In this document: positions 11,846 to 51,237 of the stretch, one piece after another | Layout: every line of letters begins with the position of its first letter | Position numbering within the stretch: position 1 is the first letter of the stretch | Assembly (NCBI GenBank): GCA_016218485.1 | Contig: JACRDY010000059.1 | Coordinates: forward strand, 11,529 to 75,528 | Source: Candidatus Falkowbacteria bacterium | Lineage (GTDB): Bacteria; Patescibacteriota; Patescibacteriia; JACRDY01 | Reading direction: 5' to 3' | DNA length: 64,000 nt | Notes under the pieces: generated by a model | What the model saw: only the letters and a program-made list of their open reading frames with translations | What the model was told of the DNA's origin: nothing | Databases searched by the model: none | Program-made: the position numbers and the translations under genes

Positions 11846-11947
11846 ATCCAGCACCTTCCAGAATACCCCATCAGCTTGCTGTGGGGGTGAATGGCTGAGA
11901 GAGTATGCCTGCAGTGTGTACTACCCCGACAGGAAGGTGCTGGATTT
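11846..11947. repeat. atccagcaccttccagaatacccc...ggaaggtgctggat palindromic repeat (long form with a gaatggctgagagagtat extension)
   Basis: Copies at 28771-28831, 31128-31245 and 51177-51237; partial at 4885-4935. Confidence 0.8.
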
Positions 11948-12131
11948 TAAAACCGCCCGGAGGCGGTATATTCAGTTTCTGTAGGTATTATAGGGGAAAA
12001 TACTGCGGCAGTCAAGGGGATAAGTTTTTGGGATAAGTTTTTGTACAGATAAGTTTTTGTGGTTGACATAAATAATATATTATGATAAAACAAGAAAGGT
12101 TTCCACCCCCATGACAATAAGGAGGCGGGTC

Positions 12132-12710
12132 ATGAAATTCACTCTTACGGAGCTGTTGTGTATCTTGCTGCTGATCGGTCTGGGAGCGTTCTATATGTGG
12201 GGGAACTTTGCCAAATTTGAGGATCAGGGGTTGGCTCAGGATAGCAAGGCGGCCAGCGCTGCGGCGACTACGGACACTCCAGTACAGGTCTGGCTGGCCT
12301 CGGATACGCCCCGGGACACGGTTACCTATGGCTGGCAGCGTCTGGCCATGTGGCAACTGCAGAATCACGCCCAGACCGATGTACGTCTGCAATCAGTGAC
12401 AGTACGGATCAAGAGCTCACACTCTGAGGATTTTGTCCGGATGGGGGTGGTATTCAACGGTGGTAATACCATTGACGATTGGGGGCCGTTCAGTTCGGAT
12501 ACAACAATCATGAACATGACACTCCCACCTGATGATGGGTACTTGACGCCAGAAGTATCTCGTCAACTGGAGCTGTTCGCGGAGATACAGCCAGTGGCGC
12601 TGTTTGATCCGGGTTGGTATGCCCAGGCGAGTCTCATCGGTCTGCAGACGGATCCGCCGGGTGCAGTCAGCGGACTGCCAGTGGATGGGTTCACCCTCCA
12701 CTTACAATAA
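12132..12710 (+). CDS. pilin-like protein (type IV pilin-like N-terminal helix; non-canonical prepilin site)
   Basis: aaggagg RBS then MKFTLTELLCILLLIGL (FTLxE with Glu5 but no Gly at -1); next to pilT; the ORF could also begin at 12111. Confidence 0.5.
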   Translation: MKFTLTELLCILLLIGLGAFYMWGNFAKFEDQGLAQDSKAASAAATTDTPVQVWLASDTPRDTVTYGWQRLAMWQLQNHAQTDVRLQSVTVRIKSSHSEDFVRMGVVFNGGNTIDDWGPFSSDTTIMNMTLPPDDGYLTPEVSRQLELFAEIQPVALFDPGWYAQASLIGLQTDPPGAVSGLPVDGFTLHLQ

Positions 12711-12789
12711 GCACATGATGAATCGGGAATCCCGCTCGGCGGGAGGCCCGATTTTCTTTTTTGCGTTGGAGTTGTTACCTCATTAATGA

Positions 12790-13200
12790 TAGAAGTAGGG
12801 AGGTTACTAATACGTTCCTCTCCTTACCAAGGAGAGGGCAGGTGAGGTTGCCGGAGCCTTCGGTCCCTACCCAAGGGGTGCTCGACGGTCTCCTCCTCTT
12901 ACAAGGTTCGCCGCAGGCAACCGAAGTAAGGGGAGGGACAGGGTGGGGTTAAGTTTACTGTATCGCAAAAAGTTTAAAGTATTTCGCATTGATTAGACTG
13001 CAAACCCCCTCCTGTCCTCCCCCTTATGAATAAGGGGGAGAGACGTGCTACCCCCGAACCCCACGTTACTTATTCTGTTTTCTTTTTGAATTTTATCTAG
13101 CTCTGACGGGGTAGGCAACATAGGAGGGTAATAGCCCGTCCTCCTCCTTACCAAGGAGAGGAACGCTCTAGCCTCGGCTCCACTGGACTTATTCTGTTTT
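12790..13200. repeat. GC-rich mosaic repeat cluster
   Basis: Contains ctctccttaccaaggagag twice, ggttgccggagccttcggtc, aaggggagggacagggtgggg, cctcctgtcctcccc and cttattctgttttc twice. Confidence 0.75.
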
Positions 13201-13225
13201 CTTTTCTTTCAAAATTTGGTAAAAT

Positions 13226-13262
13226 ACTAATAACTAAGGACTAAGGACTAAGGACTAAGGAC
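13226..13262. repeat. Tandem heptamer array (ctaagga)x5 immediately 5' of the pilT start; equals five tandem AAGGA Shine-Dalgarno cores
   Basis: Read directly; the last AAGGA lies 5 nt before the ATG. Confidence 0.85.
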
Positions 13263-13273
13263 TAAGGACTATT

Positions 13274-14323
13274 ATGGATATCAACCAATTTTTCTCGACC
13301 GCCATTACCAAGGGCGCTTCAGACGTTCACCTGGTGGCCGGGCACAAACCGACTGTCAGAATTTTTGGCAAGCTGCAGGAAATAGACGCTAGCGCGAGCG
13401 CGCTGGATAACGCGGAATTAACCAAGGGTATTTTTGGTCTCTTAACCAAAGAGCAGGTGGGGCGGTTTGAGCGCGAGTGGGAGCTGGACTTCGCCTACCA
13501 GGTGGATCACACCCGCTTCCGCGTCAACCTGCACTACCAGCTGGAGCAGATCGGCCTGGCCGCGCGTCTGGTGCCCAAAGATATCCCCACGCCGGCCGAG
13601 ATTAACCTGGAGCCGGTGCTCTACGAGCTGACGCACCTCAACCAGGGGTTCATCCTCGTCACCGGACCGACCGGCAGCGGTAAATCCACCACCATTGCCA
13701 GCATGCTCAATATTATCAATACCGAGCGGCGGTCGCACATCATTACCCTGGAAGATCCGATTGAGTTCATTTACCCCAAGCAGCAGAGTATCGTGGAGCA
13801 GCGCGAAGTCGGCCGCGACACCAAAACTTTCCACGCCGGGCTGAAGTATGTCCTGCGCCAGGATCCTAACGTCATCCTGATTGGCGAAATGCGCGACCCG
13901 GAGACCATCGCCGCCGCCCTGACCGCGGCCGAGACCGGGCACTTGGTTTTTTCCACCCTGCACACCAATTCGGCGGCCGAGACCGTGGAGCGGATCATTG
14001 ATTCGTTTGACTCCGAGCGGCAGCGCCAGATCCTGATCCAGCTTGGTTCGGCTTTGAAGGCGGTCGTGACGCAGCAGCTGGTGCCGACCGTGGAAGACAA
14101 GGTGACGGTGGCGCGGGAAATTATGATCAATACGCCCGCCATCGCCAACCTCATCAGGCAGAATAAGATCGCCCAGATTCCCTCGGTCATCCAGACCGGC
14201 CGTAATGATGGCATGATGACGATGAGCGCGGCGCTCAAAAATCTCTACAACAACGGACTGATTTCCGCCGATGTCTACCAGCACCGGCTGGTGAGCAGTG
14301 AGAAGGTGGGAAGTTACTTTTAG
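13274..14323 (+). CDS. pilT: type IV pilus retraction ATPase PilT
   Basis: 349 aa; GFILVTGPTGSGKSTT Walker A plus Asp box and His box of the PilT/PilU family. Confidence 0.9.
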   Translation: MDINQFFSTAITKGASDVHLVAGHKPTVRIFGKLQEIDASASALDNAELTKGIFGLLTKEQVGRFEREWELDFAYQVDHTRFRVNLHYQLEQIGLAARLVPKDIPTPAEINLEPVLYELTHLNQGFILVTGPTGSGKSTTIASMLNIINTERRSHIITLEDPIEFIYPKQQSIVEQREVGRDTKTFHAGLKYVLRQDPNVILIGEMRDPETIAAALTAAETGHLVFSTLHTNSAAETVERIIDSFDSERQRQILIQLGSALKAVVTQQLVPTVEDKVTVAREIMINTPAIANLIRQNKIAQIPSVIQTGRNDGMMTMSAALKNLYNNGLISADVYQHRLVSSEKVGSYF

Positions 14324-14324
14324 T

Positions 14325-14450
14325 TGAAAGTTCAAAGTTCAAAATCCAAATGACAAATCAATGCCAAATGACAAAGTTCAAAAGGTGCGACTATTAGGCA
14401 TTTAAACTTTGAACTTGATTTGAACTTTTGATTTTGAACTTTGAACTTAA
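14325..14450. repeat. AT-rich gttcaaagt palindromic repeat
   Basis: Near-identical to 6418-6560 and 45398-45525. Confidence 0.75.
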
Positions 14451-14453
14451 TCT

Positions 14454-14789
14454 ATGTCTCCAGAACGCTGGCAAACAATTAAAGGCCAAGTCAAGGATAA
14501 CCCGGCGCTGAAGGTGCTGGAAGAGGACGCGGGCGAGTTTGATGACATGCCCGGCAGTTTTGAGTCATTGGTGTTCATGGGGCCGATGGGTAAAATTAAG
14601 CTGGAGTTCATCACCCGGCCGGTCGTCTTGGACAAGAAAACCAATACCTCGCGCCGGATTGGCGCCGAGGCGAGCGTGGAGTATATTTATTCTGAAGATG
14701 AATTTAGCCACAAATTGACCGTCTACCAGTGGAATGAGGCCACGGATGATTGGGATGAGCTGAAAAGCAGTATGTTTGGGGGAGAATAA
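14454..14789 (+). CDS. hypothetical small acidic protein
   Basis: 111-aa ORF; no family recognised. Confidence 0.4.
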   Translation: MSPERWQTIKGQVKDNPALKVLEEDAGEFDDMPGSFESLVFMGPMGKIKLEFITRPVVLDKKTNTSRRIGAEASVEYIYSEDEFSHKLTVYQWNEATDDWDELKSSMFGGE

Positions 14790-14898
14790 ATTAATTACGA
14801 ATTACGAATTAAGAATTGTAGATTTTATTGCTGGTTGGGGGCGGGTAGACGCGGTACGTCGCTTTTTTTGTTACCCAAAGTTTGCTAAAATAAGACCA

Positions 14899-16668
14899 AT
14901 GCAGAGACACTTCACCACTCGCAAGCCCGACTACTCGCTGCACTCTTGGCGTGTGCGGTTTTTGTGGTGGGTGATCGTGGTCTTGACCGCCATTGTGATC
15001 GTTCGGCTATTCTGGCTGCAGGTAGTGCGCCATAGTGACTATCAGAATTTGGCGGCGCTGCAGCATGATATTTACCAGGAAGTATTGCCGGACCGGGGCA
15101 TTATCTATACGCAAAACACGCGGCTGGCTGAAGGCGCGGAAAATAAGTACTTTCCGGTGGCCAATAACCAGCGGTTTTATCTTATCTACGGCCAAACCTT
15201 TGCCGTCGAGGACGCGGGCAAGACCGCCGAGCAGCTGAATGCTGTTTTGGATTTGCCGCCGGACGTGCTGGCGCGCATTATTGAACAGCTGTCCAAACCC
15301 AATGATCCCTACGAGCCGTTGGTACATCGGGTGACGGAAGATAAGATCGCGGCCTTGTCCGCGCTGGCGCTGCCCGGCATCAAGTGGGAAGAGGAAACAC
15401 TGCGCTATTATCCGGACAAAAATATCGGCAGCAATATTCTCGGTTTTGTCGGCTGGGTCAATGATACGCTCGTCGGTCAGTACGGCCTGGAAGGCTATTT
15501 CAATAAAGAGTTGAGCGGAGAAAAGGGGTTTTTGCGCTCCGAGCGCGATGCTACCGGCCGGCTGATCGGCGTCGGCGAGCAGAACTTTAAAGAGGCGCTC
15601 AACGGCACTGACCTGTATCTGACTATTGATAATTCCATTCAAGCTTTTGCCTGTCAGACGTTGGGCGACGCCGTCACCAAGTACGACGCCGATGGCGGCG
15701 CGGTCATCGTGACCAATCCGCGCACCGGCGCAGTTCTCGCTCTGTGCAATAACCCCGACTACGATCCTAATGACTACAGCGCGGTGGAGAATATCCGCTC
15801 CTACACCATTCCGGCGATCTTTGACGCCTATGAGCCGGGCAGTGTTTTTAAGCCGCTGACACTGGCGGCGGCGCTGGAAGAGGGGAAAATCACCCCCGAG
15901 ACCACTTACGAAGATACCGGCGAGGTCAAGATTGACGGTTACAGTATCAAGAATTCTGACCTTAAAGGCCACGGCATGGTTAGCATGGTGGATGTGCTCA
16001 AACTGTCGCTCAACACCGGCGCCATCTTCGGCATGCGCCAAATCGGGCCGGCCAAGTTCGCCGACTACGTGCGCAATTTCGGTTTCGGCGAGCTGACCGG
16101 TATTCAGCTGGATAGCGAGGCGGCCGGGAACATTACCCCGCTCAAGAAGAATAAAGAAATCTACGCCGCCACCGCCTCGTTCGGTCAGGGCATCACGGTG
16201 ACGCCGCTGCAGATGGTCAATGCCTACGCGGCGATTGCCAACGGCGGTACGTTAATGAAACCGTACATCGTGGAACGAACTGTTGACGCGCTGGGCAGTG
16301 AATACCGCGCCGTGCCACAGGAGATCCGCCGGGTCGTCAGTGAGCGCACTGCCACTTTGATCTCTGGCATGATGGTGCAGGTGGTGGAGGCCGGCTACGG
16401 TCAGCGCGCCAAAGTGCCCGGCTACTACATCGCCGGCAAGACCGGTACGGCGCAGGTGGCTGAACCCGGCAGTGGCGTCTACGGCAGCCGGACTATGCAC
16501 ACCTTTGTCGGCTTTGGGCCGGTCAGCGATCCGCAGTTCGTCATGCTGGTGCGCTTGGATCACCCCACCGCCGCGCGCTTTGCCGAGAGTACCGCCACGC
16601 CCGCCTGGGGGCAGATCGCCAAGTTTATTCTCAACTACTACCAGATTCGGCCGGATGAGGTTAAGTAA
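14899..16668 (+). CDS. penicillin-binding protein 2 / peptidoglycan D,D-transpeptidase (FtsI family)
   Basis: TM segment FLWWVIVVLTAIVIV; SxxK (GSVFKP), SLN and KTG(T) motifs; start at the ATG at 14899 is inferred. Confidence 0.85.
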   Translation: MQRHFTTRKPDYSLHSWRVRFLWWVIVVLTAIVIVRLFWLQVVRHSDYQNLAALQHDIYQEVLPDRGIIYTQNTRLAEGAENKYFPVANNQRFYLIYGQTFAVEDAGKTAEQLNAVLDLPPDVLARIIEQLSKPNDPYEPLVHRVTEDKIAALSALALPGIKWEEETLRYYPDKNIGSNILGFVGWVNDTLVGQYGLEGYFNKELSGEKGFLRSERDATGRLIGVGEQNFKEALNGTDLYLTIDNSIQAFACQTLGDAVTKYDADGGAVIVTNPRTGAVLALCNNPDYDPNDYSAVENIRSYTIPAIFDAYEPGSVFKPLTLAAALEEGKITPETTYEDTGEVKIDGYSIKNSDLKGHGMVSMVDVLKLSLNTGAIFGMRQIGPAKFADYVRNFGFGELTGIQLDSEAAGNITPLKKNKEIYAATASFGQGITVTPLQMVNAYAAIANGGTLMKPYIVERTVDALGSEYRAVPQEIRRVVSERTATLISGMMVQVVEAGYGQRAKVPGYYIAGKTGTAQVAEPGSGVYGSRTMHTFVGFGPVSDPQFVMLVRLDHPTAARFAESTATPAWGQIAKFILNYYQIRPDEVK

Positions 16669-16669
16669 A

Positions 16670-16810
16670 TTGTTACATTGCTACATTGCCAAATTGCCAA
16701 ATGGTCATTCTGTTATATTGCTATATGGTTATACTGTTAAATACCCCACCAAACAATATAACAGTATAGCAATGTGACAATTTAGCAATTTGGCAATGGA
16801 GCAATGTATT
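16670..16810. repeat. Palindromic repeat built from attgcca/attgcta heptamers
   Basis: ttgctacattgccaaattgccaaatgg...ccatttggcaat-like arms; related copy at 32650-32740. Confidence 0.65.
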
Positions 16811-16871
16811 TTCCCATCTGTCCCGCCCATCTTGATTTTTCCTCATTCATCTGCTACACTGCCCAAACTCT

Positions 16872-18173
16872 ATGCGCGCTGTTATCGCCAAAATTCTCCG
16901 TTTCTTTGCTCGGAATGTATTGCAGAAATACCAGCCGGACGTTGTTGGCGTGACCGGCAGTATTGGTAAGACGTCCGCCAAGGAAGCCATCTTCACCGTC
17001 CTGTCCAGCGAGTTCCGCGTGCGCAAGACCGAGAAGAATTACAATAACGAGCTGGGCCTGCCTCTGACTGTCCTCGGTCTGGAAACCGGCGGGCGCAACC
17101 CCTTCTCTTGGCTGATGGTCATGGTGCGCGCCGCCAAGCTGTGGCTGCTGCGCTCCGTGAATTATCCGGAGATTTTGATCCTGGAAATGGGGGCGGATCG
17201 GCCCGGCGACATCAAGTACCTGACCGATTTCGTTCCCTGCACTGTCGGAGTGGTGACGGGCGTGGCGCCGGTGCACATTGAATTTTTCCAGCACCTTGAA
17301 CATATCGCCAAGGAAAAGAACACCCTGGTCAAAAGTTTGGGCAGAGAGGGCACGGCCGTGCTCAATGCCGATGATGAGCTGGTGCGGGCCATGGCCGAGG
17401 GGCTGAAAGCCAAAGTCATCACCTATGGCTTTTCCGAGCACGCCAGTCTGCGCGCCTACGAAGAGCGGGTGTCTGGTCAAGACCTGTCGCTCAAAGATGG
17501 CGTGGAGGCTATCCGGGGTTTGAGTTTCAAAGTGTCATACGGCGGCAGCACCGTGCCGGTATTCCTGCCGTCCGTGGTGGGGCGCCATTCGGTCAACGCC
17601 GCGCTGGCCGCCATTGCCGTGGGTGTGGCGTGTGGCATCAACCTGGTGCGTATTTCCGAAAATCTCAAACAGTATCGTCCGCCCAAGGGCAGAATGAACC
17701 TGATTGACGGCATCAAATACACGCTGATCATTGACGACACCTACAATTCTTCGCCGATTCCGGCGCTGGCCGCGCTGGATGTGCTCCACGAGATACAGCT
17801 GCCCACGGGTCGGCACAAGTTCGCGGTCCTTGGCGATATGCTGGAACTGGGCGGCTACACCGAGAAAGCGCATCTGGAAGTGGGGCGCAAAGTGGCCGAG
17901 CTCCGCATTGATTACCTGGTGACGGTTGGCGAGAAGTCGCAGAGTACCGCCAACGCCGCGCGCGGCGCCGGTATGTCGCCGGATCGCATCTACTCATTTG
18001 ACAATTCCCGGGAAGCTGGTAAATTCCTGCAGGATCGGGTGGAGCAGGGCGATTTGATCTTAGTTAAAGGTTCGCAGGGTATGCGGATGGAGCGGATCGT
18101 CAAAGAGCTGATGGCCGAACCATTGCGCGCCGCTGAACTGCTGTGCCGGCAGGAAGGGAAGTGGTTGCAATAA
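16872..18173 (+). CDS. murF: UDP-N-acetylmuramoyl-tripeptide--D-alanyl-D-alanine ligase
   Basis: 433 aa; GVTGSIGKTS Mur ligase P-loop; MurF-like domain order. Confidence 0.88.
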   Translation: MRAVIAKILRFFARNVLQKYQPDVVGVTGSIGKTSAKEAIFTVLSSEFRVRKTEKNYNNELGLPLTVLGLETGGRNPFSWLMVMVRAAKLWLLRSVNYPEILILEMGADRPGDIKYLTDFVPCTVGVVTGVAPVHIEFFQHLEHIAKEKNTLVKSLGREGTAVLNADDELVRAMAEGLKAKVITYGFSEHASLRAYEERVSGQDLSLKDGVEAIRGLSFKVSYGGSTVPVFLPSVVGRHSVNAALAAIAVGVACGINLVRISENLKQYRPPKGRMNLIDGIKYTLIIDDTYNSSPIPALAALDVLHEIQLPTGRHKFAVLGDMLELGGYTEKAHLEVGRKVAELRIDYLVTVGEKSQSTANAARGAGMSPDRIYSFDNSREAGKFLQDRVEQGDLILVKGSQGMRMERIVKELMAEPLRAAELLCRQEGKWLQ

Positions 18174-18352: not shown

Positions 18353-18359
18353 TTGGCCC

Positions 18360-19839: not shown

Positions 19840-20400
19840 GAGGAGCACGTAGCCCGTTCCTCTCCAATCCATCAGAGAGGTCAGCCTGCCCCGCCCCGCA
19901 TTGTGCGGGGTGCGGGGCGAGGCAAGGGTGGAGGTTGCCGGAGTTTTTTAATCTCCTCCGAAGCGGGGCAGCACGTCTCCTCCCCTTGCGAGGTTCACCG
20001 AAGGTGACCGAAGTAAGGGGAGGGACAGGGTGGGGTTTTTATTGCTCTCACTCCCACCGTTATATCTAGTTCCACCGTTTGGGTGCTACCCCTCCGCGGG
20101 GGCTCGTTACTTTCTGCCTGCCCGCCACAACTTCGCAGATATTGGCGGGTAGCTTTGGCAGGCGGGTAACCAACTCCCACCCCCACCCATCAGGGCTTGA
20201 GCCCCTCAGGGCCGAAGGCCGCCCCCGTAAGCTTCCCCCGCACAATGCGGGGCAGGGGGAGACCCGCCCACTTCCACCCGCTCCGCGCCCACCCGCCGGT
20301 AGCCACTCCAGTACCCTGTCTGCTCCCTCGCGTCGCTCGGGGCAGTTGCCACCCCGAACCCCACCGGACTTATTTTGTTGGATGGTTGATGGTGGTTGAT
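19840..20400. repeat. Largest GC-rich mosaic repeat cluster (~560 bp)
   Basis: Contains ccccgcattgtgcgggg twice (both orientations), aaggggagggacagggtgggg, ggttgccggag, and ccgaaccccaccggacttattttgtt. Confidence 0.75.
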
Positions 20401-22477: not shown

Positions 22478-22725
22478 TATCTAGTATCTAGTATCTGGTA
22501 TCTAGGGAAAAGTCACTGCTGTAAGTTAATTTTAGATATTCAACTTTAGATGCCGTCTATGAAAAAGCGCTGACGAGCAGCGTAGCCTTAAATCAGACGA
22601 GCAAAATATATCAGACTTTAGCAAAATAAGCAAGGTAAGTAGAGGAGGTGTCTCATAATCTAGGTGATTTTCCCAGATACCAGATACCAGATACCAGATA
22701 CTAGATACCAGATACTAAATACGGT
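22478..22725. repeat. ~250-bp element bounded by inverted tandem heptamer arrays (tatctag x4 ... ccagata x6)
   Basis: Read directly; MITE-like architecture. Confidence 0.6.
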
Positions 22726-22741
22726 ATACTGTAGGTAATTT

Positions 22742-28735: not shown

Positions 28736-28770
28736 GTTCAAAGATTGAATTGGTGGTAGCATTCATCTTT

Positions 28771-28831
28771 ATCCAGCACCTTTCAGAATACCCCGTCAGT
28801 TTGCTGCGGGGTATTCTGAAAGGTGCTGGAT
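28771..28831. repeat. atccagcacctttcagaatacccc...ggaaggtgctggat palindromic repeat (short form)
   Basis: Perfect ~28-bp arms. Confidence 0.8.
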
Positions 28832-28875
28832 TTATTTCAAAAGTCGCCCGATCGGGCGATTTTTGGGTATTGTGG

Positions 28876-28908
28876 GTATTTGTTGTAGAGACGCAATGCA
28901 TTGCGTCT
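28876..28908. repeat. Perfect palindrome tagagacgcaatgcattgcgtctcta
   Basis: Read directly. Confidence 0.6.
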
Positions 28909-29008
28909 CTACCAGACCCACCCCTGGACGCGTACATTTTTTTTGACAATTTATGATTATTGTAAGCTTTCAATTATCCATTGAGATAAAACAACAGGAG
29001 GTCAAGTC

Positions 29009-30481
29009 ATGTCGTCCAAGGCGATCGTAGATATCATCCGATGTGTGATGAATGGTCTGGCGTTGCCCGACAACGTCACGTGGGAAGGTGTGTGCGACGC
29101 ATACGGCTACGCCAAGCACAATCTTCCCGAAGAAGTGACTGCGGCGCTGTTTGAGCTCCTGGGGCAGTATCTCCGTCGGTTGCCGCCAGAGAAAGAAAAA
29201 ATCAAGAACCTTTTCGACTACTGGCAGGGAAAGGATCCCGCTCTTTCGCGACTCCAGGAGGTTGCAATCAAAACAGCAACCTATCCGTTTGAGCTGGAGT
29301 ATTGGGAGGGATGGCAGGATGACGATTTGTGTGACCTCGGGTATGAGCGGCTCGCCGCGATGCCCGTGACCGTGAAACGTTTGCAGGTGCAGTACCAATA
29401 CTGTCGTCCAGGAACAGAGCGACGGGCAACAGTCGTGGCAGCGCTGCTGGGTTGGTCGGATGAGGTATCCTATCACGAATTCAGCATGCTGGTCAGCACC
29501 TATCGGCAGCAGGGCTTCCCCGCGGATTTGGCGGGAGTTCTCAAAAAATGGGTGACTACTCAATCCACTCACTCCGCCGACTGGCTGGAGCAATGGGAGA
29601 GGATGAAGGCAGGTCATGACGCCGATTCGGCAGCGCTGGCGGAGGCGTTTTTCCATAACGCCATCTCCACCGCGCATGACTTCAATGAGCAGTGGAAGGT
29701 CTTGACAGAGTTGCCGCTCAGCGAGTGGCAACAACAGGCCGTTTTGGCCAAACTGGCCGAGACTGGCACGTTGGGAGACTGGCATTGGATTCTGGGGCGT
29801 ACTGAGCCCAAGGATCGTTCGCCGGAAGTCCTGCGGCTGATTGAGCAGGCGTACCAACAGACCGACTGGCGGACGCTCCTGCGTCTGGCACAGAACTCTG
29901 ACGCAGAGCCTGATGGGAATTGGGATGACGGGTACACTCGGATGCTCGGGGATGACGACCTGCTGTCTACAGTTCTGTTTGAGCAGATCGCTCGTGATCC
30001 CTCCGCGGAACTGCCGGAGCTGCTGCGGATTTGGTGCCGCACCATTCCCGAGAGCTCCTACGAGCCCGTCATCATGGAGAGGATTAAGGGAGCCATCACT
30101 ACGGCGCGTGATTGGCTGCAGACCTACGGCTGGTGGCAGCGGTCATCCGCCTTGATCGAGCTGGCGCAGTGTCGGCTGCTCGCGAGTGTCTCGTCCCTCG
30201 ACGAGTGGCTCAAGCTCTGCAGTGGATACAAACTGGAGCACTACACTTCGTGGGTGACTCCGCTGACGCGGCATTTCATCAGCGTCACGGATGCCGACTT
30301 TGAGTACTGGCAAAACAGGATCAAGCATCCGATCCTGCGGGACTGCGCCGGCGCCATTCTCCAGAAGATGCACACTAGCGCTGACAGCAAACAGTGTCTG
30401 GAGGCACTGCTCGAGCTGTGCTATGACTACCGGGACCCTCTCGGGTCAACGGTGGCGAAGGCGCTGCTCTCTGTCGCCTAA
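29009..30481 (+). CDS. hypothetical Trp-rich helical protein
   Basis: 490-aa ORF with an aggagg RBS; GC-richer than baseline; no family recognised; the overlapping minus-strand ORF 28970-29857 is judged spurious. Confidence 0.6.
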   Translation: MSSKAIVDIIRCVMNGLALPDNVTWEGVCDAYGYAKHNLPEEVTAALFELLGQYLRRLPPEKEKIKNLFDYWQGKDPALSRLQEVAIKTATYPFELEYWEGWQDDDLCDLGYERLAAMPVTVKRLQVQYQYCRPGTERRATVVAALLGWSDEVSYHEFSMLVSTYRQQGFPADLAGVLKKWVTTQSTHSADWLEQWERMKAGHDADSAALAEAFFHNAISTAHDFNEQWKVLTELPLSEWQQQAVLAKLAETGTLGDWHWILGRTEPKDRSPEVLRLIEQAYQQTDWRTLLRLAQNSDAEPDGNWDDGYTRMLGDDDLLSTVLFEQIARDPSAELPELLRIWCRTIPESSYEPVIMERIKGAITTARDWLQTYGWWQRSSALIELAQCRLLASVSSLDEWLKLCSGYKLEHYTSWVTPLTRHFISVTDADFEYWQNRIKHPILRDCAGAILQKMHTSADSKQCLEALLELCYDYRDPLGSTVAKALLSVA

Positions 30482-30496
30482 CATGCATGCGAGATT

Positions 30497-30535
30497 CAAT
30501 CCACCGGCGTTCGCGCCGGTGGCTTTCATTTAACA
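30497..30535. terminator. Rho-independent terminator (ccaccggcg-ttcg-cgccggtgg + T-rich)
   Basis: Read directly. Confidence 0.7.
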
Positions 30536-31125
30536 AAGATTTCAAGAAACAAAGAATCAATCGGTAAGTATTGTTTCGTTGCTTATTTGCTTCTTTGTTT
30601 CTTGGCCCCCCTGTTTCTTGGCCCCCTTGACTATTCAGGCGTAATTATTCTAAGATAACAAAATCCCAGACCGCGGAGGGTGTGGTCTCGAAGGACCTGG
30701 TCCTCAAACAGGATGCCTGTATTGCCTATTCGGGCCAGTGACGACATTCTCTGACACCATGGCAGCACCGTTTCTCCATTCGGGGCGCAATAGAGTGGGC
30801 GTTGCCCAAAAGCCCTGGGAGCGCAGAAACGAAGCGAGCAATGGCGATGAGACGCCGTCTAGGCCCGGATTCATCGGGCTCACCATGAATCAGAGGGACC
30901 CTTCGAGCCCTCCCTCCCGCGGTCGTTCACACGACACGAAAGCCCTCGCCCAACCACGATGATAAAAAAGTGTCTCCTAGTAGGACTCCAAATTCCCGGG
31001 TAGACACTTCCGGGGTCATCTGGTTGGGCGAGGTGCCCCTCCATTTTCATTCAGCCGATAGAATATCCGTTTAGAATATCCGTTTATAGCGGGTTTTTAT
31101 TTTTTTTGCTATACTGGTAATAGTA
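30536..31125. other. ~590-bp non-coding stretch of unknown nature (candidate structured RNA or decayed gene)
   Basis: No convincing ORF; internal palindromes (aggacctggtcct; duplicated ttcttggccccc; duplicated gaatatccgttta); did not match tmRNA, RNase P or SRP RNA consensus on inspection. Confidence 0.3.
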
Positions 31126-31127
31126 TA

Positions 31128-31245
31128 ATCCAGCACCTTCCAGAATATCCCGCAGCAAGCTGACGGGGTATTCTGGAAGGTGCTGGATGAATGGCTGAGA
31201 GAGTATTTCTGTGGCGTGCACTACCCCGACAGGAAGGTGCTGGAT
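31128..31245. repeat. atccagcaccttccagaata... palindromic repeat (long form)
   Basis: Near-identical to 11846-11947. Confidence 0.8.
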
Positions 31246-35119: not shown

Positions 35120-35231
35120 AAAAACAAACCCGTTCGCAATAGCGGGAACGGATTTGTTTGACGGTTCCAGGTTTGACACTTGAATATTACCAGTATAACA
35201 AAGTATATTGTTGTGTCAATGGAATAGGTGT

Positions 35232-35300
35232 GGAGCTAAGGGGAATCGAACCCCTGTATTCAAGTGTCAGGCTGGAATACCGCCACCAGGCATAGCTCCA
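35232..35300 (-). tRNA. tRNA-like gene with canonical acceptor and T-arm but atypical D/anticodon region; anticodon unresolved (loop CCUGACA)
   Basis: Minus-strand RNA GGAGCUAUGCCUGGUGGCGGUAUUCCAGCCUGACACUUGAAUACAGGGGUUCGAUUCCCCUUAGCUCCA; 7/7 acceptor pairs; GGGGUUCGAUUCCCC T-arm; no CCA; anticodon stem needs a C-U mismatch or a 9-bp stem. Confidence 0.55.
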
Positions 35301-39639: not shown

Positions 39640-39830
39640 TAGGGTGTGTAATAGCCCGTTCCCCTCCTTTCCAAGGAGGGGCCAGGGGCGGTTGCCGGAG
39701 CCTTCGGTCTCTACCCAAGCTTTGTTCGCAGGCCACGGTAGCAGCCAATACCTCGGCAACCTCACCCGTCCTCCCCTTAGAAAGGGGAGGAACGGTCTAT
39801 TCCCGGTTGCCGGAGTTTAAATCCAATATA
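39640..39830. repeat. GC-rich mosaic repeat (cccctcctttccaaggagggg; ggttgccggagccttcggtc; cctccccttagaaaggggagg)
   Basis: Shares modules with 12790-12900. Confidence 0.7.
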
Positions 39831-45383: not shown

Positions 45384-45397
45384 TGTATCGTATACTA

Positions 45398-45525
45398 AAA
45401 TTCAAAGTTCAAAATCCAAATGACAAATCAAGTTCAAAGCCTAAATGTCAAATCAACGCACCTTTTTGAACTTTGTCATTTGGCATTGATTTGAACTTTG
45501 GATTTTGAACTTTGAACTTATCGGG
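45398..45525. repeat. AT-rich gttcaaagt palindromic repeat
   Basis: Near-identical to 14325-14450. Confidence 0.75.
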
Positions 45526-45596
45526 GTTATATGGATTGCTTGTTATCACATTGATTATTTGTTAAAATAAAGAAAACTAACCCATAAGCCTTACGT

Positions 45597-46430
45597 ATGA
45601 TAGACGCTCCTCAGACGGGAACCGACATTCCGGTGTCCAGTCAGCGACCAATTTCATCTTATGCAACGAGCCGTTTTCCGTGGCTGACGATGATTATTTC
45701 TATTCTGGCCACCGTCATTGTGGTTGGCGGCGGCGGGTACTACTGGTGGCAGCAGAGTGTTGGCACGACGCAAGTGACATTGCAGCAACAGGCCGATGCG
45801 GCAGCAGCCAGCGTCACCGCCTGCGCCAATGATTTGACCGGTTGCCGTGATCAGCTGACCAAGAGCCAGGATGAGCAGCAGCAGATCAATGCCGAGCTGG
45901 CGATGATTGCTCAACTGCCCTACCAGGGCTGGAAAACGTACACCGATACCCAGTTCGGCTGGCAGTGGCTGTACCCGCCGGATTGGCAGGTCAGCGAGCA
46001 GGTGATAAACGCGGCCAAGAACGTCAGCGGCAAGAACGGTTTTTGCCTAAAGTTTGATTCGTCAGACAGTACGACGTTATCCGTTTGTTACCGTTTGCAG
46101 TCAGACACGACCGCCACCACTTGGTTCCGTACCGGCATCGGCTACACCGAACTGGCCAAAGTGCCGGTCAGCTTTTCTATCCTCGGTCAGCAGATGAACG
46201 AGAAGACGCTGTTCGGTCAAGATGGCGAGGTGAAAGATATTATTTACTTTCAAAACATGAAAGATGACGAGACCGGCTATCCGGCACGAGCTAAGGTGGG
46301 GGATTACTACATTACCGCTATGGCCTCCGACGCCGGTTTCCGTGGCACCGGCTTGAGCGTTATTGACCAGAAACTTTTGGATTTGATTCTCGCTTCCGCC
46401 AAATTGCCGACTGCTGTTGAGCAGCCGTAG
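45597..46430 (+). CDS. hypothetical membrane-anchored / secreted protein
   Basis: 277 aa; TM MIISILATVIVVGGGGYYWW; no family recognised. Confidence 0.5.
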   Translation: MIDAPQTGTDIPVSSQRPISSYATSRFPWLTMIISILATVIVVGGGGYYWWQQSVGTTQVTLQQQADAAAASVTACANDLTGCRDQLTKSQDEQQQINAELAMIAQLPYQGWKTYTDTQFGWQWLYPPDWQVSEQVINAAKNVSGKNGFCLKFDSSDSTTLSVCYRLQSDTTATTWFRTGIGYTELAKVPVSFSILGQQMNEKTLFGQDGEVKDIIYFQNMKDDETGYPARAKVGDYYITAMASDAGFRGTGLSVIDQKLLDLILASAKLPTAVEQP

Positions 46431-47004
46431 AACTAATATGGCCGGTATACTACGACTAGCAGTCTCTGGATCAGCCGGATCATTCTCCGAAGAAGCCGCC
46501 CGCTGGTACCTCCAGCGCGAGGGGCAAGAGGGGGAGATTGTTTTTGGGATTGATCCGGATGGCGTGTTCGCCGCGCTCGCCGAGGGGCGGGCGGACCTGG
46601 GGATTATCCCGGTGGTGAATTCGCGGGGCGGATTGGTCATAGACGCCTATGTGGCCATGGGCAAGAATTTGTTTACCGTGGTTGACCACGTGGTGATTGA
46701 AGTCCAACAGTGTTTGCTGGCGTTACCGGGAACAACCAAAGCAGCGATTACCCAGTTCGCCTCACACCCGCAGGCCTTTGCCCAGTGTGAGCGGTATCTG
46801 CTGAATAATTTTCCTAATATCAAACATACCCCGTGGTCAGACACGGCTGAAGCGGCGGAGGATTTAAAATCAGGCAAACTGCCGTTGACTACCGGTGTGA
46901 TCGCGTCAGCCTTGGCCGGCAAGAATAATGGATTGGAAATTCTGGAAAAGGGGATTCAGGACGCCCGGCCGAATCTGACGACGTTTTTGGTGGTGCAGCA
47001 GTAG
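46417..47004 (+). CDS. pheA: prephenate dehydratase (PDT domain only)
   Basis: 195 aa; ...ASHPQAFAQCERYL...TTFLVV PDT signatures; no ACT domain. Confidence 0.75.
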   Translation: MSSRRTNMAGILRLAVSGSAGSFSEEAARWYLQREGQEGEIVFGIDPDGVFAALAEGRADLGIIPVVNSRGGLVIDAYVAMGKNLFTVVDHVVIEVQQCLLALPGTTKAAITQFASHPQAFAQCERYLLNNFPNIKHTPWSDTAEAAEDLKSGKLPLTTGVIASALAGKNNGLEILEKGIQDARPNLTTFLVVQQ

Positions 47005-47090
47005 TAATTTTCTGTGTTATTCTGTGCTTTAGTCTGTGTTCTTCTGTGTGCGTTTTAAATTTATAGCACACAGACCACACAGACCCCGAC
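47005..47090. repeat. ctgtgt / cacaga heptamer-type palindromic repeat
   Basis: Read directly. Confidence 0.55.
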
Positions 47091-47294
47091 TGGCGTTGGG
47101 GCACGGAAAAACACGGAGTTGTAAGGTTAGGCTATCGCCATGGCTCTACAGCCATGGCTCTACCCTTGCATTATTTTTAATTTTTTGCTAAACTAAGCCC
47201 AGCTTAATTAAATCATCACTCATCTGCGCCATTTTCCTTCCCTTGTTTTTACAACAATCGGGCAGGCACAGAGAGGGATAATAAAGGAAAAAAT

Positions 47295-47990
47295 ATGCCA
47301 ACATTACCAACGTTGGAGGAAATGCTTAAGGCTGGCCTACATTTTGGTCACCAGAAGGACAAGTGGCATCCCAAAATGGAGCAGTACATTTTCGCGGAGC
47401 GCAACGGCGTCCATATTATTGATCTGGAAAAAACCCAGATCAAGCTTCAGGCAGCGCTGCAATTTATTACCAACACGGTCAAAGCTGGCGGTGTTATTTT
47501 GTTTGTCGGAACTAAAGATCAGGCCAAAGACAGTGTTACCAAGGCCGCACAGGACTGTGGTATGCCATACGTGTCTAACCGCTGGCTCGGCGGTACGCTC
47601 ACCAACTTTCCCATTATTTTAAAACTCATTAAGAAGTACAAAGATCTCAAAGCCAAACAGGAAACGGGCGGATTCAAGGGCTACACCAAAAAAGAGCAGC
47701 TGGATTTTCAAGAAGATATCGTTAAGCTGGAAGGGCGCGTCGGCGGTATCAAAGATCTTAAGAAAGCGCCGGACGCTATTTTCCTCGTGGACGCTAAACA
47801 CGAGAAGACCGCGCTGACTGAAGCCAAGAAAAAAGGCATCACGCTGGTGGTGCTCTGTGACACTAATATCAACCCGACCAAGATTGACTATGTCATTCCG
47901 GGTAATGATGACGCGACCAAGGGTATAGAGATGATCGTGGCGCTGGTGGCGGAGGCGGTTAAAGAAGGCAAAGCGCTGCAGGGGAAGTAA
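47295..47990 (+). CDS. rpsB: 30S ribosomal protein S2
   Basis: 231 aa; S2 family. Confidence 0.95.
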   Translation: MPTLPTLEEMLKAGLHFGHQKDKWHPKMEQYIFAERNGVHIIDLEKTQIKLQAALQFITNTVKAGGVILFVGTKDQAKDSVTKAAQDCGMPYVSNRWLGGTLTNFPIILKLIKKYKDLKAKQETGGFKGYTKKEQLDFQEDIVKLEGRVGGIKDLKKAPDAIFLVDAKHEKTALTEAKKKGITLVVLCDTNINPTKIDYVIPGNDDATKGIEMIVALVAEAVKEGKALQGK

Positions 47991-47997
47991 TTTTTAA

Positions 47998-48020
47998 TTA
48001 CGAATTACGAATTACGAATG
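47998..48020. repeat. Tandem heptamer array (attacga)x3 between rpsB and tsf
   Basis: Also at 14800-14822, 18172-18196 and (inverted) 18330-18352. Confidence 0.8.
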
Positions 48021-48034
48021 ATAAAAATAAAATT

Positions 48035-48802
48035 ATGAGTTTAGACGATATCAAAAAGTTGAGAGAAACCACTGGCGCCGGCATGGTTGATTGTCAGAAG
48101 GCGCTGGATGAAGCGGGCGGAGACCTGACTGCCGCCGTGGATATTCTGCGCAAGAAAGGCCTGGAAAAAGCCGGCAAGAAAGCGGAGCGTGCGACGAGCG
48201 AAGGGATGATTGCCATGGCCCGAGAGGGGAAAAAAGTGGCGGTGGCTTCACTGCGTTGCGAGACTGATTTCGTGGCGCGCAACAGCGACTTTGGCGCGGC
48301 CGTGGCGGAGTTTGCCAGCCAGCTTTTGACAGTTTCTGCCGATGAGTTCAAAACCTGGGCCGAGGAAAAAATCAAGAACGAATTGATCGTAAAAATTGGT
48401 GAAAATCTCCAGCTGGGCGACTTCGGTGTGCTGGAAGGTGATGTTGTCGGCGTTTACCTCCATTCGGACAAGAAGCAGGCCGCGGTGGTGGTACTGTCCG
48501 GTGGTACGGCAGCACAGGCCAATGATCTGGCGATGCAGGTGGTGGCCATGTCTCCGAGTTATATCCGGCCGGAAGATGTGCCGGCCGAGGTTATTGCTAA
48601 AGAAAAGGAAATTTACGTTGAACAAATGGCTGGAGAGAATAAACCGGCCGAAGTTTTGCAGAAGATTATTGAAGGTAAACTGCAAAAGTTTTATATGGAG
48701 ACTTGTTTACTAAAGCAGCCGTTTATTAAAGATGACAGTCAGACTGTTGAGCAGTGCTTGGGCAACGCGACGGTGAATGAGTTTCAGCGGTATAGTATTT
48801 AG
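48035..48802 (+). CDS. tsf: elongation factor Ts
   Basis: 255 aa; N-terminal UBA-like LRETTGAGMVDCQKAL. Confidence 0.93.
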   Translation: MSLDDIKKLRETTGAGMVDCQKALDEAGGDLTAAVDILRKKGLEKAGKKAERATSEGMIAMAREGKKVAVASLRCETDFVARNSDFGAAVAEFASQLLTVSADEFKTWAEEKIKNELIVKIGENLQLGDFGVLEGDVVGVYLHSDKKQAAVVVLSGGTAAQANDLAMQVVAMSPSYIRPEDVPAEVIAKEKEIYVEQMAGENKPAEVLQKIIEGKLQKFYMETCLLKQPFIKDDSQTVEQCLGNATVNEFQRYSI

Positions 48803-48849
48803 TTTTGAGATAGTATTTAGGAAAGGCCTCGTTCGCGGGGCTTTTTTGT

Positions 48850-48950
48850 ATTCCTGGAGTGACACAGCCTCTGGCTGTGTTATGTTATTCAGTAGAGCTT
48901 TCAGCATAACACAGCCAGAGGCTGTGTCACTCCTACTGTGTCACTCCTAC
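48850..48950. repeat. Palindromic repeat gagtgacacagcctctggctgtgttatg ... cataacacagccagaggctgtgtcactc
   Basis: Variants at 56566-56650 and 60112-60190, between paralogs of the Cys-rich array. Confidence 0.8.
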
Positions 48951-49007
48951 TAGCTACGGGCATTCTTTTTATGCTATAATACGCTCATAACCCTTAACCT
49001 TTCCCCT

Positions 49008-50018
49008 ATGGTTCAAAAAGTCCGCGTCGCCATTAACGGTTTCGGTCGCATTGGCCGGGCGGCATTTAAAATTGCTTTAGACAACAAGAAAGTGGAGGTG
49101 GTGGCGATTAATGATCTGGTGGCGCCGTCGGTGCTGGCGTATCTTTTAAAATATGATTCAGTCTACAATACGTACGATAAGAAAGTGACCGCTGACAGTA
49201 AACACGTCATCGTCAATGGCAAGAAGTATCCGGTGTTTCAGGAGCGCGAGCCAAAGAGATTGCCCTGGAAAAAGTTGGGAGTGGATGTGGTTTTGGAGTG
49301 CACCGGATTTTTTCTGGACACGGCCGGGGCCGGACAGCACCTGCGGGCGGGCGCCAAAAAAGTGGTCATCTCCGCACCGGGCAAAGACGATGTGGCCAAC
49401 ACGCACGTCTTCGGCACTCTAGAGACGCAGAAGCATGTTAAGCACGGCCAAGTGGTTTCCAACGCTTCCTGCACCACCAATTGCATCAGCCCGGTGATGC
49501 AAGTCTTGGCCACCGTGTTTGGGATTGAGAAAGCGATGATGACGACCGCGCACGCCTATACCGCGAGCCAGGGGCTGGTTGATGAACCAAACAGCAAGGA
49601 TATGCGTGAAGGCCGCGCGGCGGCAATGAACCTAGTACCCACCCACACCGGCGCGGCGGAGGCGACCGCCAAAGTGGTCCCGGCGCTGCAGGGAAAATTC
49701 ACCGGTATTTCCATCCGCGTGCCCGTGATCTGCGGTTCGTTGTCTGACGTCACCTGTGTTTTGAAAAAAAATGTGACGGCAGAACAGGTCAATAATGCGT
49801 TTCGCCGCGCTGCCAAGCAGCCGCTGTTCAAAAATATTCTGGAAGTTTCCGACGCACCATTAGTTTCCAGTGACATCATTGGCAATCCGCATTCGGCGAT
49901 CGTGGACACGACCTTTACCCGCGTGGTTGACGGTAACTTAGTGAAGGTTTTGGCCTGGTATGATAACGAGTGGGGGTACGCGCACCGGTTGGTGGAGATG
50001 GCGGTGGCAGTAAGTTAG
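49008..50018 (+). CDS. gap: glyceraldehyde-3-phosphate dehydrogenase
   Basis: 336 aa; NGFGRIGR and ASCTTNC active-site motifs. Confidence 0.95.
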   Translation: MVQKVRVAINGFGRIGRAAFKIALDNKKVEVVAINDLVAPSVLAYLLKYDSVYNTYDKKVTADSKHVIVNGKKYPVFQEREPKRLPWKKLGVDVVLECTGFFLDTAGAGQHLRAGAKKVVISAPGKDDVANTHVFGTLETQKHVKHGQVVSNASCTTNCISPVMQVLATVFGIEKAMMTTAHAYTASQGLVDEPNSKDMREGRAAAMNLVPTHTGAAEATAKVVPALQGKFTGISIRVPVICGSLSDVTCVLKKNVTAEQVNNAFRRAAKQPLFKNILEVSDAPLVSSDIIGNPHSAIVDTTFTRVVDGNLVKVLAWYDNEWGYAHRLVEMAVAVS

Positions 50019-50019
50019 T

Positions 50020-50125
50020 AATCAGTAATCAGTAATCAGTAATCAGTAATCAGTAATCAGTAATCAGTAATCAGTAATCAGTAATCAGTAACTAGTTACT
50101 AGTTACTGATTACCAGTTACTTTAT
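50020..50125. repeat. Tandem heptamer array (agtaatc)x10 followed by inverted (agttact)x3
   Basis: Read directly. Confidence 0.9.
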
Positions 50126-50129
50126 AAAT

Positions 50130-51176
50130 ATGTTCTCAAAACAAGATCTCTCCCAATTTTTCCTCCTGTTGCTATTAGCAGCTTCTCTGTATTTGGTGTA
50201 CCTCTTTTTCAAGCCTTTCTTAATGGTGATTCTCCTGTCCGGCGTGCTGGTGTCTATTTTCTATAGTTGGTATGAGTGGGTGCTGCCGCGGTTGCAGGGT
50301 AAGCGGAGTTGGGCGGCGTTGATTATGGTGGTGGTCATCGCGGTCATTATTATTCTGCCAGTGACGTTGTTTATTTTTTACCTGTCCAAAAAATCACTGG
50401 AAGGCTTTAGCGCCATTACCGTTTGGATCAATAGCGGCGCGGCTGAACGGACGGTCAATCAGGGACTGTTGAGCCGGTTCAGTTTCATTGATGTTGAAGC
50501 GCTGAATCTTCGTCAGTATCTGGTCAGCGCCAGCTCGCGGATTTACAGCTTTCTCCTGTCTGGCGGCACCTCGCTCCTCAAAGGCACGACGCAGCTGTTC
50601 ACCAGTTTGATCTTGATGTTTTTCACCATGTTTTTCCTGTTCCGTGACGGTAAAACATTCATGCGTGAGGTGATGCACCTGACGCCGCTGCCCAATAAGT
50701 ATGACCGGAAGATTTTTCAGAAATTTCGCGATGTCAGCTACTCTACCATCACCAGTACCTTTGTAACCGCTATTGTCCAGGGTATTATTGGTTCAGTGGG
50801 TTTCATGATCGTCGGCATCCCGGCTTTTTTCGCCGGTGTCGCCATGGCGTTTTTGGCGCTGTTGCCGTATGTTGGCGCGACATTTGTTTGGCTGCCGGCG
50901 GGGTTGTATCTCCTCCTGACCGGCAAGATTTGGCAAGGCATATTTATTTTAATCTGGGGGTCGGTGGTGGTCAGTCTGGTAGATAATATTTTGCGGCCGA
51001 TGCTGATTAAGAATAAAGCCCAGATCCATCCGTTGATTATTTTCTTTGCGATCTTCGGCGGTATCCTTACCTTTGGCTTCTGGGGGATGATTCTCGGGCC
51101 GATCATTATTTCCATTGCGTTTACCATTCTCCATATTTATGAATTGGAGTACGCTGATGTATTGGAGGAGGAATAA
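50130..51176 (+). CDS. AI-2E family transporter (PerM/UPF0118)
   Basis: 348 aa; 8 TM helices; LIKNKAQIHPLIIFFAIFGG...GPII C-terminal family signature. Confidence 0.8.
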   Translation: MFSKQDLSQFFLLLLLAASLYLVYLFFKPFLMVILLSGVLVSIFYSWYEWVLPRLQGKRSWAALIMVVVIAVIIILPVTLFIFYLSKKSLEGFSAITVWINSGAAERTVNQGLLSRFSFIDVEALNLRQYLVSASSRIYSFLLSGGTSLLKGTTQLFTSLILMFFTMFFLFRDGKTFMREVMHLTPLPNKYDRKIFQKFRDVSYSTITSTFVTAIVQGIIGSVGFMIVGIPAFFAGVAMAFLALLPYVGATFVWLPAGLYLLLTGKIWQGIFILIWGSVVVSLVDNILRPMLIKNKAQIHPLIIFFAIFGGILTFGFWGMILGPIIISIAFTILHIYELEYADVLEEE

Positions 51177-51237
51177 ATCCAGCACCTTCCAGCATATCCC
51201 GTCAGCGTGCTGCGGGGTATGCTGGAAGGTGCTGGAT
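51177..51237. repeat. atccagcaccttccagcata... palindromic repeat (short form)
   Basis: Family copy. Confidence 0.8.

Follow-up and report, generated by a model that had tools for sequence, protein, structure and literature searches.

The stretch of DNA described here, termed the window, comprises 64,000 nucleotides of contig JACRDY010000059.1 from a Candidatus Falkowbacteria bacterium (assembly GCA_016218485.1), and carries four copies of a hairpin-forming repeat beside the genes for SecE, a DUF11 surface protein, a LOG protein and an AI-2E family transporter. Relatives of this repeat in groundwater and sediment metagenomes display exact filled and empty sites, which show the element, as judged by sequence comparison, to be mobile, and the presence of the same ends around genes for small GIY-YIG nucleases suggests which enzyme may be responsible for that mobility.

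The hairpin repeats of the window

An earlier description of this DNA, made from its letters alone (the sequence-only reading), proposed a dispersed family of hairpins at four loci, and that family is real. Its 24-nt arm, ATCCAGCACCTTCCAGAATACCCC, matches the window seven times with up to three mismatches, against 0.00 matches expected (100 shuffles), and a covariance model of the family (R1), run with filters off, recovers the same four loci only, at E values of 2e-19 to 2e-9 and with a runner-up at E 0.014 (Table 1). Copy 11846 (copies are named by their first position) scores highest, at 89.8 bits (E 2e-19), followed by copy 31128 with 71.8 bits across its whole 118 nt, copy 28771 with 54 and copy 51177 with 50.

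Table 1. Positions and form of the repeat copies in the window
Feature	Positions	Strand	Form
Copy 11846	11846..11945	+	100-nt type: 14-nt terminal inverted repeats, P2 hairpin tip, decayed middle and P3
Copy 28771	28771..28831	.	61-nt near-perfect palindrome: 24-nt arms and tip mini-stem, one bulge
Copy 31128	31128..31245	+	Composite: 61-nt palindrome (31128-31188), its tip inverted relative to the other copies, fused to the 3' 57 nt (31189-31245) of the 100-nt element
Copy 51177	51177..51237	.	61-nt palindrome
Tip-only fragment	4897..4920	+	Tip hairpin ATACCCCGTCAGCTTGCTGCGGGG, terminal arms missing; a second, similar small hairpin comes after it

Several details of the earlier description required adjustment. 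Arms of about 28 bp had been assigned to every copy; three copies are indeed near-perfect palindromes, with arms of 24 nt, and copy 11846, whose start was correctly placed and whose end lies at 11945 rather than 11947, pairs by its 14-nt termini only. The extension said to be identical over some 55 bp in copies 11846 and 31128 is shared, and corresponds to the 3' part of a unit of approximately 100 nt; it is 57 nt long, with 51 of 57 positions identical. A partial copy placed at 4885-4935 does contain the 21-nt tip motif CCCCGTCAGCTTGCTGCGGGG without substitution (inside 4897-4920), and has only that tip in common with the family (9.1 bits, E 6).

As single-stranded DNA, the three 61-nt copies fold with -31 to -33.5 kcal/mol and z values of -12 to -15 (copy 28771, -33.5 kcal/mol, z -14.9; copy 51177, -31.4 kcal/mol, z -12.3), and copy 11846 folds more weakly (-21 kcal/mol, z -3.6). 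Differences between copies include paired changes that preserve the stem (C>T with G>A at 28771; A>C with T>G at 51177). Copy 11846 aligns end to end with the metagenome consensus discussed below, and copy 31128 corresponds to the 100-nt element plus 18 inserted nucleotides, by which the complement of its left arm is made complete; copies 28771 and 31128 are mutually inverted over 65 nt, at 92% complementarity. A TTTA is found at each side of copy 28771 (28768-28771 and 28831-34), followed by TT, and copy 51177 reads TTTTTA^TCCAGC...GCTGGA^TTTA^TTCC on the minus strand.

All four copies are intergenic, at 0-35 nt from a gene end or 11-14 nt from a gene start. Copy 28771 is located 35 nt past the stop codon of the DUF11 surface protein gene, copy 51177 begins at the very next base after the TAA stop of the gene for the AI-2E family transporter, and copy 31128 ends 11 nt before the ATG (31257) of the LOG gene, identified by PF03641. 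These three positions agree with the placement at gene ends and starts given by the sequence-only reading, which had also put copy 11846 at the 3' end of secE; because secE (11643-11831) is on the minus strand, that copy is instead upstream of the gene, in its leader, 14 nt from the ATG at 11831 and between this start and a strong promoter-like site (TTGACT-17-TATAAT, 12015-11987, minus strand).

The further proposal that the repeats were co-opted as terminators is not supported. No T-run follows GGAT at any of the four copies (flanks TTTAAAAC, TTATTTCA, AAAATTTT and AAAAATTA), a terminator scan called 0 of the 4, so that none qualifies as an intrinsic (Rho-independent) terminator, two copies lie in leaders, and related copies are found within coding sequences. 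A separate, canonical hairpin with a T-run was read directly at 28844-28864, after copy 28771, and a weaker, A/T-rich one, likewise read directly and passed over by the scan, follows copy 51177 at approximately 51255-51285 (one mismatch in its 8-bp stem). On the simplest reading, the window copies sit in the leaders and trailers of mRNAs, and their effects on neighbouring transcripts are incidental at most; the hairpins may passively influence how stable an mRNA is. A TATAAT at 31124-31129 that overlaps copy 31128 was considered as a promoter and rejected: the sole hexamer resembling a -35 box is 12 nt away, and the promoter scan was silent. A search of the window against Rfam, with gathering and E-value thresholds, returned tRNA matches only; the consensus element returned only sub-threshold matches to miRNA-type hairpins, and no membership of an Rfam family, ribozyme or intron.

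Three 23-kb regions from relatives of this genome (77-80% UvrA identity) contained zero copies, and near UvrA in those relatives the LOG and DUF11 genes are not in conserved synteny. The interiors of both window copies of the 100-nt type are decayed. The simplest reading is that the window holds old, decayed or palindromised relics of the family; three of them probably became perfect 61-nt palindromes, tip inversion included, through hairpin-templated repair or recombination between the arms.

Some further observations concern the surroundings of copy 31128. An open reading frame (ORF)-poor stretch of about 450 nt (30560-31100) lies immediately upstream of it, between a promoter-like site (30627-30656) and a hairpin with a T-run (31078-31104); it may represent an undescribed non-coding RNA gene, and Rfam gave no match at E<=1 in the 30.5-31.3 kb region. 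Copies 28771 and 31128 bracket this stretch together with a 490-aa ORF without a Pfam match (29009-30481), and the resulting repeat-gene-repeat layout (28771-31188) resembles the NTS-gene-NTS layout described in Neisseria, where NTS is a hairpin repeat considered below. The only other public contig that encodes the window's LOG protein, Logan contig SRR12113407_782663 (L121), starts at the very next base after the 61-nt palindrome, which suggests that the palindrome breaks short-read assemblies.

The 100-nt unit and its insertion at TTTA

A metagenome scan, using an arm pattern specific at 21 bases, located at least 120 loci in groundwater and sediment samples; the counts of sites given in this section refer to the matches listed from that scan. 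Among these, the usual form of the element is a 100-nt unit, ATCCAGCACCTTCCAGAATACCCCGCAGCTTGCTGCGGGGATGAATGGCTCAATATAGCCTTCCTGCGGGGTGCAATACCCCGACAGGAAGGTGCTGGAT, and not a simple palindrome, the perfect 61-nt palindromes having been seen in the window only. At least 80 distinct complete sites lie outside the window, and at least 38 sites carry one identical 100-nt sequence. Lengths range from 41 to 132 nt, with perfect 14-nt inverted ends, and the shorter forms (41 and 68-70 nt) are deletion forms that have short direct repeats within the element as their endpoints. Both sequence subfamilies adopt the same multibranch fold, in which a 14-bp closing stem encloses three hairpins (z about -8). 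In the alignment, 90.8% of cells are paired in the proposed structure, as against 41-48% with the partners slid, and in hairpins P2 and P3 28 cells are altered on both sides, as against 11.2 +/- 3.1 in shuffles, these changes mostly separating the two subfamilies.

As far as seen, the family is limited to bacteria belonging to the candidate phyla radiation (CPR; Patescibacteria). Viral contigs held no copy, and a scan of a genome collection with a 14-base pattern gave chance matches only. A search with peptides encoded by the element returned 33 candidates, most of them spurious short ORFs, with the named proteins coming from Candidatus Doudnabacteria of the Rifle aquifer.

Outside the window, the site of insertion is nearly invariant: the left flank is TTT in 64-66 of 67 instances of the ~100-nt form, the right flank is TTATT in 63-66 of the 67, and in 66 the element points the same way with respect to the asymmetric target TTTATT. 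Two pairs of paralogous loci, both also outside the window, display filled and empty versions of such a site. In locus L171, the empty paralog (9958-10078) reads GAATTTTA^TTATGAC, and the filled site (8654-8876) differs by 102 additional bases that end in a second TTTA; in L139, compared with its paralog, a 70-nt form is situated within GGAGTTTA^TACTTC, adding 72 nt. These comparisons of sequence show insertion at TTTA^T, in one orientation and with a second TTTA carried along, such that each 100-nt form adds 102 nt. [quoted passage not shown]

Three of the unit's six reading frames are open, and 102 nt amount to 34 codons, so that some copies lie in frame within genes and others truncate them. 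In-frame copies, checked with Pfam, are located in UvrC (RNase H-like endonuclease domain), RecX, a GmrSD_N/HNH protein, a DUF3800 protein and a transglutaminase-like protein; copies in a stop-containing frame interrupt Fpg, PAP2, a pilin and a GIY-YIG gene. Taking out 102 nt restores Fpg exactly (GNIY^SDE motif, continuous H2TH domain), as well as the PAP2 domain. At least 6 in-gene copies are read through and 4 interrupt their host, and the majority of copies are intergenic. Such filled and empty sites show, within the reach of sequence comparison, an element that is mobile, and the identical copies show, on the same footing, its recent multiplication in a Doudnabacteria-type genome.

GIY-YIG genes and the question of a mobilising enzyme

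Elements that possess the same ends and the same TTTA tag, and a different interior, occur in the fetched loci, in the form TTTA-TCCAGCACC...GGTGCTGGA-TTTA, and some of them enclose a gene for a single-domain GIY-YIG nuclease of 81-100 aa. In L171, the contig of which also holds an identical copy of the consensus, the unit TTTA-TCCAGCACC-ATG...MYYVYLLKS...GGTGTTGGA-TTTA encloses a small GIY-YIG ORF, whose product, like the proteins of 81-98 aa in related loci, has PF01541 as its sole domain. Homologs of this protein are 81-102 aa in length, and those that bear an organism name belong to Candidatus Pacebacteria and Candidatus Collierbacteria. The Collierbacteria unit is arranged as ATCCAGCACCACTTTTG, GIY-YIG gene, CAAAAGTGGTGCTGGAT, and a 37-nt mini hairpin in L181 (ATCCAGCACCACTTTTG-TTC-CAAAAGTGGTGCTGGAT) consists of exactly the two 17-nt ends of that unit; to judge by this match, the two are an autonomous and non-autonomous pair belonging to a sister family. 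The ends of the Pacebacteria unit co-vary (TCCCGCACC.../...GGTGCGGGG, also given as TCCCGCACCACTTTTT / AAAAAGTGGTGCGGGG), and more distant GIY-YIG homologs are bracketed by inverted repeats of their own. Genes of this kind flanked by repeats on both sides are found in L171, L245-L250, L242, L147 and L214, and share with the dispersed repeats the terminal 9-17 nt only. In 7 of the 26 closest homologs, the C-terminal tail of the protein is a translated end of the CCAGCACCAC type. Over 66 aa, the L171 protein shares 42% identity (E 3e-13) with the product of a GIY-YIG gene flanked by canonical NTS-type hairpins; searches of PDB sequences and NCBIfam with it found generic GIY-YIG similarity only.

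A closely comparable arrangement was described by Chenal et al. in 2025 (PMC11893778). [quoted passage not shown] The same report does not mention CPR bacteria (PMC11893778). Repeats of the NTS/SRM type, including Neisseria dRS3 and Rickettsia RPE-4/-6, correspond to the CGTC-tagged repetitive extragenic palindromes (REPs) of Di Nocera et al. 2013 (PMC3733652), which lack a transposase and in some cases lie inside repair genes (PMC3733652).

The repeats described here are probably non-autonomous, hairpin-forming mobile elements, similar to MITEs and REPs, on which an Ssn-type GIY-YIG nuclease acts in trans, mobilising or processing them. An intact unit of about 100 nt folds, as a single strand, into a 14-bp terminal stem enclosing three hairpins; a small, single-domain nuclease would cut it in trans; and integration takes place at TTTA^T, in a single orientation and with TTTA remaining at either end, the insertion within a gene being read through or truncating that gene, depending on the frame. 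Mobility itself is read from the sites; a GIY-YIG nuclease is the putative mobiliser because such a gene lies inside units with the same ends and tag, and how the move proceeds chemically is likewise a proposal.

By analogy, the family would be a variant of the hairpin-repeat/GIY-YIG architecture of the Ssn type, with a TTTA tag and a longer unit. Each system has a small single-domain GIY-YIG gene between hairpin-forming inverted repeats, numerous scattered copies of that repeat, a brief conserved tag on the 5' side that gives the hairpin its orientation, and a number of copies within genes, repair genes among them; the constant position of TTTA 5' of the hairpin would be compatible with the one-strand cutting upstream of a hairpin that Ssn performs. 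The tags themselves differ (TTTA here, CGTC there), the unit is about 100 nt with three hairpins rather than 20-50 nt, and insertion, which in PMC11893778 is only hypothesised, is seen here in empty sites. A second point of comparison is provided by the Rickettsia palindromic elements (RPEs), which are palindromic repeats of about 100 nt located between genes and in frame within protein genes of a small-genome bacterium (PMC3733652). The present family shares that size and both of those locations, has no sequence relation to the RPEs (of which RPE-4/-6 carry the CGTC tag), and differs in that some of its in-gene copies lie in stop-containing frames and that the window contains no in-gene copy.

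Several results weigh against assigning the repeats to such a nuclease: (i) no GIY-YIG, pilin or Y1 transposase gene is present within the 64-kb window; (ii) no GIY-YIG unit in the loci examined carries the longer, family-specific arm TTCCAGAATACCCC, so that what is shared comprises the terminal 9 nt and the TTTA tag; (iii) the published SRM motif, HGTCWYN(0-2)YYVSBRHN(0-5)WNVSBRGN(0-2)RNCYNB, is unmatched in the consensus element and in the GIY-YIG loci (in the window it has one match, at chance level, against 0.5 expected); (iv) the flanks of both window copies of the 100-nt type are oriented opposite to the consensus, and a clean pair of TTTA is missing at copy 11846; and (v) the covariation, because it mostly separates two subfamilies, represents few independent events. 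GIY-YIG enzymes hydrolyse DNA, and we know of none that joins strands.

It is possible, and on balance doubtful, that the inverted ends and their GIY-YIG gene constitute an autonomous transposon of a new class, with a subset of units specialised on the TTTA of prepilin genes. Under that proposal, a nuclease of about 85 aa would act on folded single-stranded DNA and host repair or ligation would complete the move, the 100-, 61-, 41- and 37-nt hairpins would be non-autonomous derivatives, and the element would supply a replacement leader peptide, with the pilin staying cleavable.

Side observations on type IV pilin clusters are as follows. GIY-YIG units, and related hairpin elements of approximately 40-110 nt, are found there at the TTTA of G-F^T codons (GGN TTT A^CN), the prepilin cleavage motif; the element's right end (GGT GCN GGN TTT A), together with an internal ATG or the GIY-YIG ORF, gives a new pilin leader (for example, MGRISIKKSGAG^FTLIE), and in L171 the nuclease ORF continues in frame into the pilin. 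Prepilin sites of this kind are located at L171:6270-6560, 6970-7015 and 9780-9860 and L242:2960-3400, and in L244 and L251-L253. Hairpins that fit the Neisseria-type NTS/SRM consensus (for example, CGTCATTCCCGCGAAAGCGGGAATCCAG and TGTCATCCCGGGCTTGACCCGGGATCCAG) number 21 in the fetched groundwater contigs (L158:5870-5935 and approximately 6330; L126, L230, L240, L161, L163, L166 and others), and one 97-aa GIY-YIG gene flanked by hairpins of this type is itself interrupted by a 100-nt element.

The two familiar routes by which short repeats are moved by a transposase both account for part of these data. An internal-deletion derivative of an insertion sequence would travel in double-stranded form, with a DDE transposase recognising its 14-bp inverted ends (ATCCAGCACC) and making a 4-5-bp staggered cut at TTTA(T). 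It would account for the perfect terminal inverted repeats, for the TTTA(T) directly repeated at the two ends, and for an element that is small, numerous and accompanied by deletion derivatives (41 and 68-70 nt), and bacterial MITEs such as Correia/NEMIS, ERIC, RUP and Nezha resemble the family in size, ends, short direct repeat, and placement beside genes and in transcripts. The classical MITE is nevertheless rather unlikely here: the target is invariant, a fixed orientation at the asymmetric TTTATT (66 of the 67 listed instances) is unexpected for a DDE element with symmetric ends, the internal hairpins are preserved through paired changes, and approximately 0.98 Mb of copy-bearing loci contain no transposase gene with these ends and no DDE-transposase parent, whereas GIY-YIG genes with them are present. 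Other features would instead be expected of a REP/RAYT- or IS200/IS605-type element, whose single strand a Y1 HUH tyrosine transposase 'peels and pastes' to the 3' side of TTTA; nothing is duplicated there, and the right-hand TTTA belongs to the element. They are the constancy of orientation and of the four bases 5' of the left end, and a subterminal hairpin near each end, P2 being separated from TTTA by 18 nt and P3 from the second TTTA by 12 nt. The arrangement matches that of IS608 in general outline; REP/BIME-RAYT and IS200/IS605 systems likewise spread through recognition of a folded single strand and are placed and oriented by a fixed tetranucleotide, and, in relatives of the window genome, a faint match to Y1_Tnp comes from genes of 202-209 aa (IS200/RAYT-like, downstream of uvrA at L254:15035-15643 and L255:13050-13679, and absent at the corresponding place in the window). 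A tblastn search with those Y1 proteins found nothing in the window or in any copy-bearing locus, the ends are TTTA/ATCCAGC and lack a GTAG tag, each hairpin mirrors the other instead of repeating it on the same strand, and the associated gene encodes a GIY-YIG nuclease; a Y1 enzyme is accordingly an unlikely mobiliser of these repeats.

Two other explanations were considered. REP-type hairpins stabilise the 3' ends of mRNAs, and the window copies might be signals selected by the host, which end transcription, stabilise mRNA ends or mark DNA for a host nuclease that governs how single-stranded DNA is taken up, the role put forward for NTS in Neisseria. Their intergenic positions near gene ends and starts, the compensatory changes that preserve the stems, and the modulation of transformation by the NTS/Ssn system (PMC11893778) would fit that explanation. 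It is highly unlikely given the missing T-tracts and the separate terminator-like hairpins after copies 28771 and (weaker) 51177, the two copies upstream of genes, the related copies that disrupt genes and the three copy-free regions of relatives, and conversion at the level of DNA can keep palindromes perfect without selection on RNA. It is also barely credible that stop-carrying copies are removed or skipped, as a very small intron or by ribosomal bypass between the TTTAT repeats, leaving the genes functional. Fpg, PAP2 and the pilin are otherwise intact and exact removal of 102 nt restores them, and identical TTTAT sequences on both sides would match take-off and landing codons in any frame; yet the Rfam searches found no similarity to a ribozyme or intron, in-gene copies favour open frames, and a recent burst accounts for a few fresh knock-outs. 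Most copies are intergenic despite high coding density, as expected if insertions in a stop frame are harmful.

A non-autonomous element processed by an Ssn-type nuclease, the reading preferred here, bears on a longer-standing problem. To our knowledge, no mobilising enzyme has been known for hairpin repeats of the dRS3, RPE or other CGTC type in more than 20 years. The link drawn in 2025 between CGTC-type repeats and small GIY-YIG nucleases came without evidence of movement, which the CPR family supplies in the form of sequence: exact empty sites, a burst of at least 38 identical copies, an invariant TTTA with fixed orientation, and mini hairpins equal to the ends of a GIY-YIG unit. Whether GIY-YIG/hairpin units are transposons acting on single-stranded DNA is now directly testable, with short oligonucleotides and a protein of 85 aa. 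In practical terms, the repeats fragment assemblies, give rise to spurious 'hypothetical proteins' in database records, and put 34-residue inserts into real proteins, such as UvrC, in reduced CPR genomes.

Other repeats and features of the window

The window has a G+C content of 50.9% and contains many other palindromic intergenic repeats. Its UvrA protein matches, without any difference, one named from a Candidatus Falkowbacteria bacterium, with Patescibacteria as its relatives. A dispersed family of about 120 nt, rich in GGAGGGG...CCCCTCC and unrelated to the TTTA hairpins, is found at 2673-2792, 12831-12950, 19975-20039 and 39675-39728, with 88-92% identity between copies and both orientations represented. 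Many intergenic regions contain 7- or 8-nt tandem repeats that switch strand halfway, such as (AGTAATC)n followed by (GTTACTA)n, or the AAGTTCAAAG type; located at 50003-50114, 11593-11639, 13227-13271, 22675-22730, 6403-6560, 14314-14450 and 45391-45520, they form long A/T-rich hairpins at gene ends and may be the usual terminators of this genome. Just upstream of uvrA, a weak match to the tRNA model is found on the minus strand at 35231-35299 (29.8 bits, at the Rfam threshold; not called by ARAGORN). Seven tandem paralogous genes occupy 51313-61841, encoding proteins of about 550-590 aa with a C-terminal motif resembling a treble-clef zinc finger, and palindromic elements are interspersed between them (for example, 56565-56642, 60114-60191, and 53089-53171 with its relatives).

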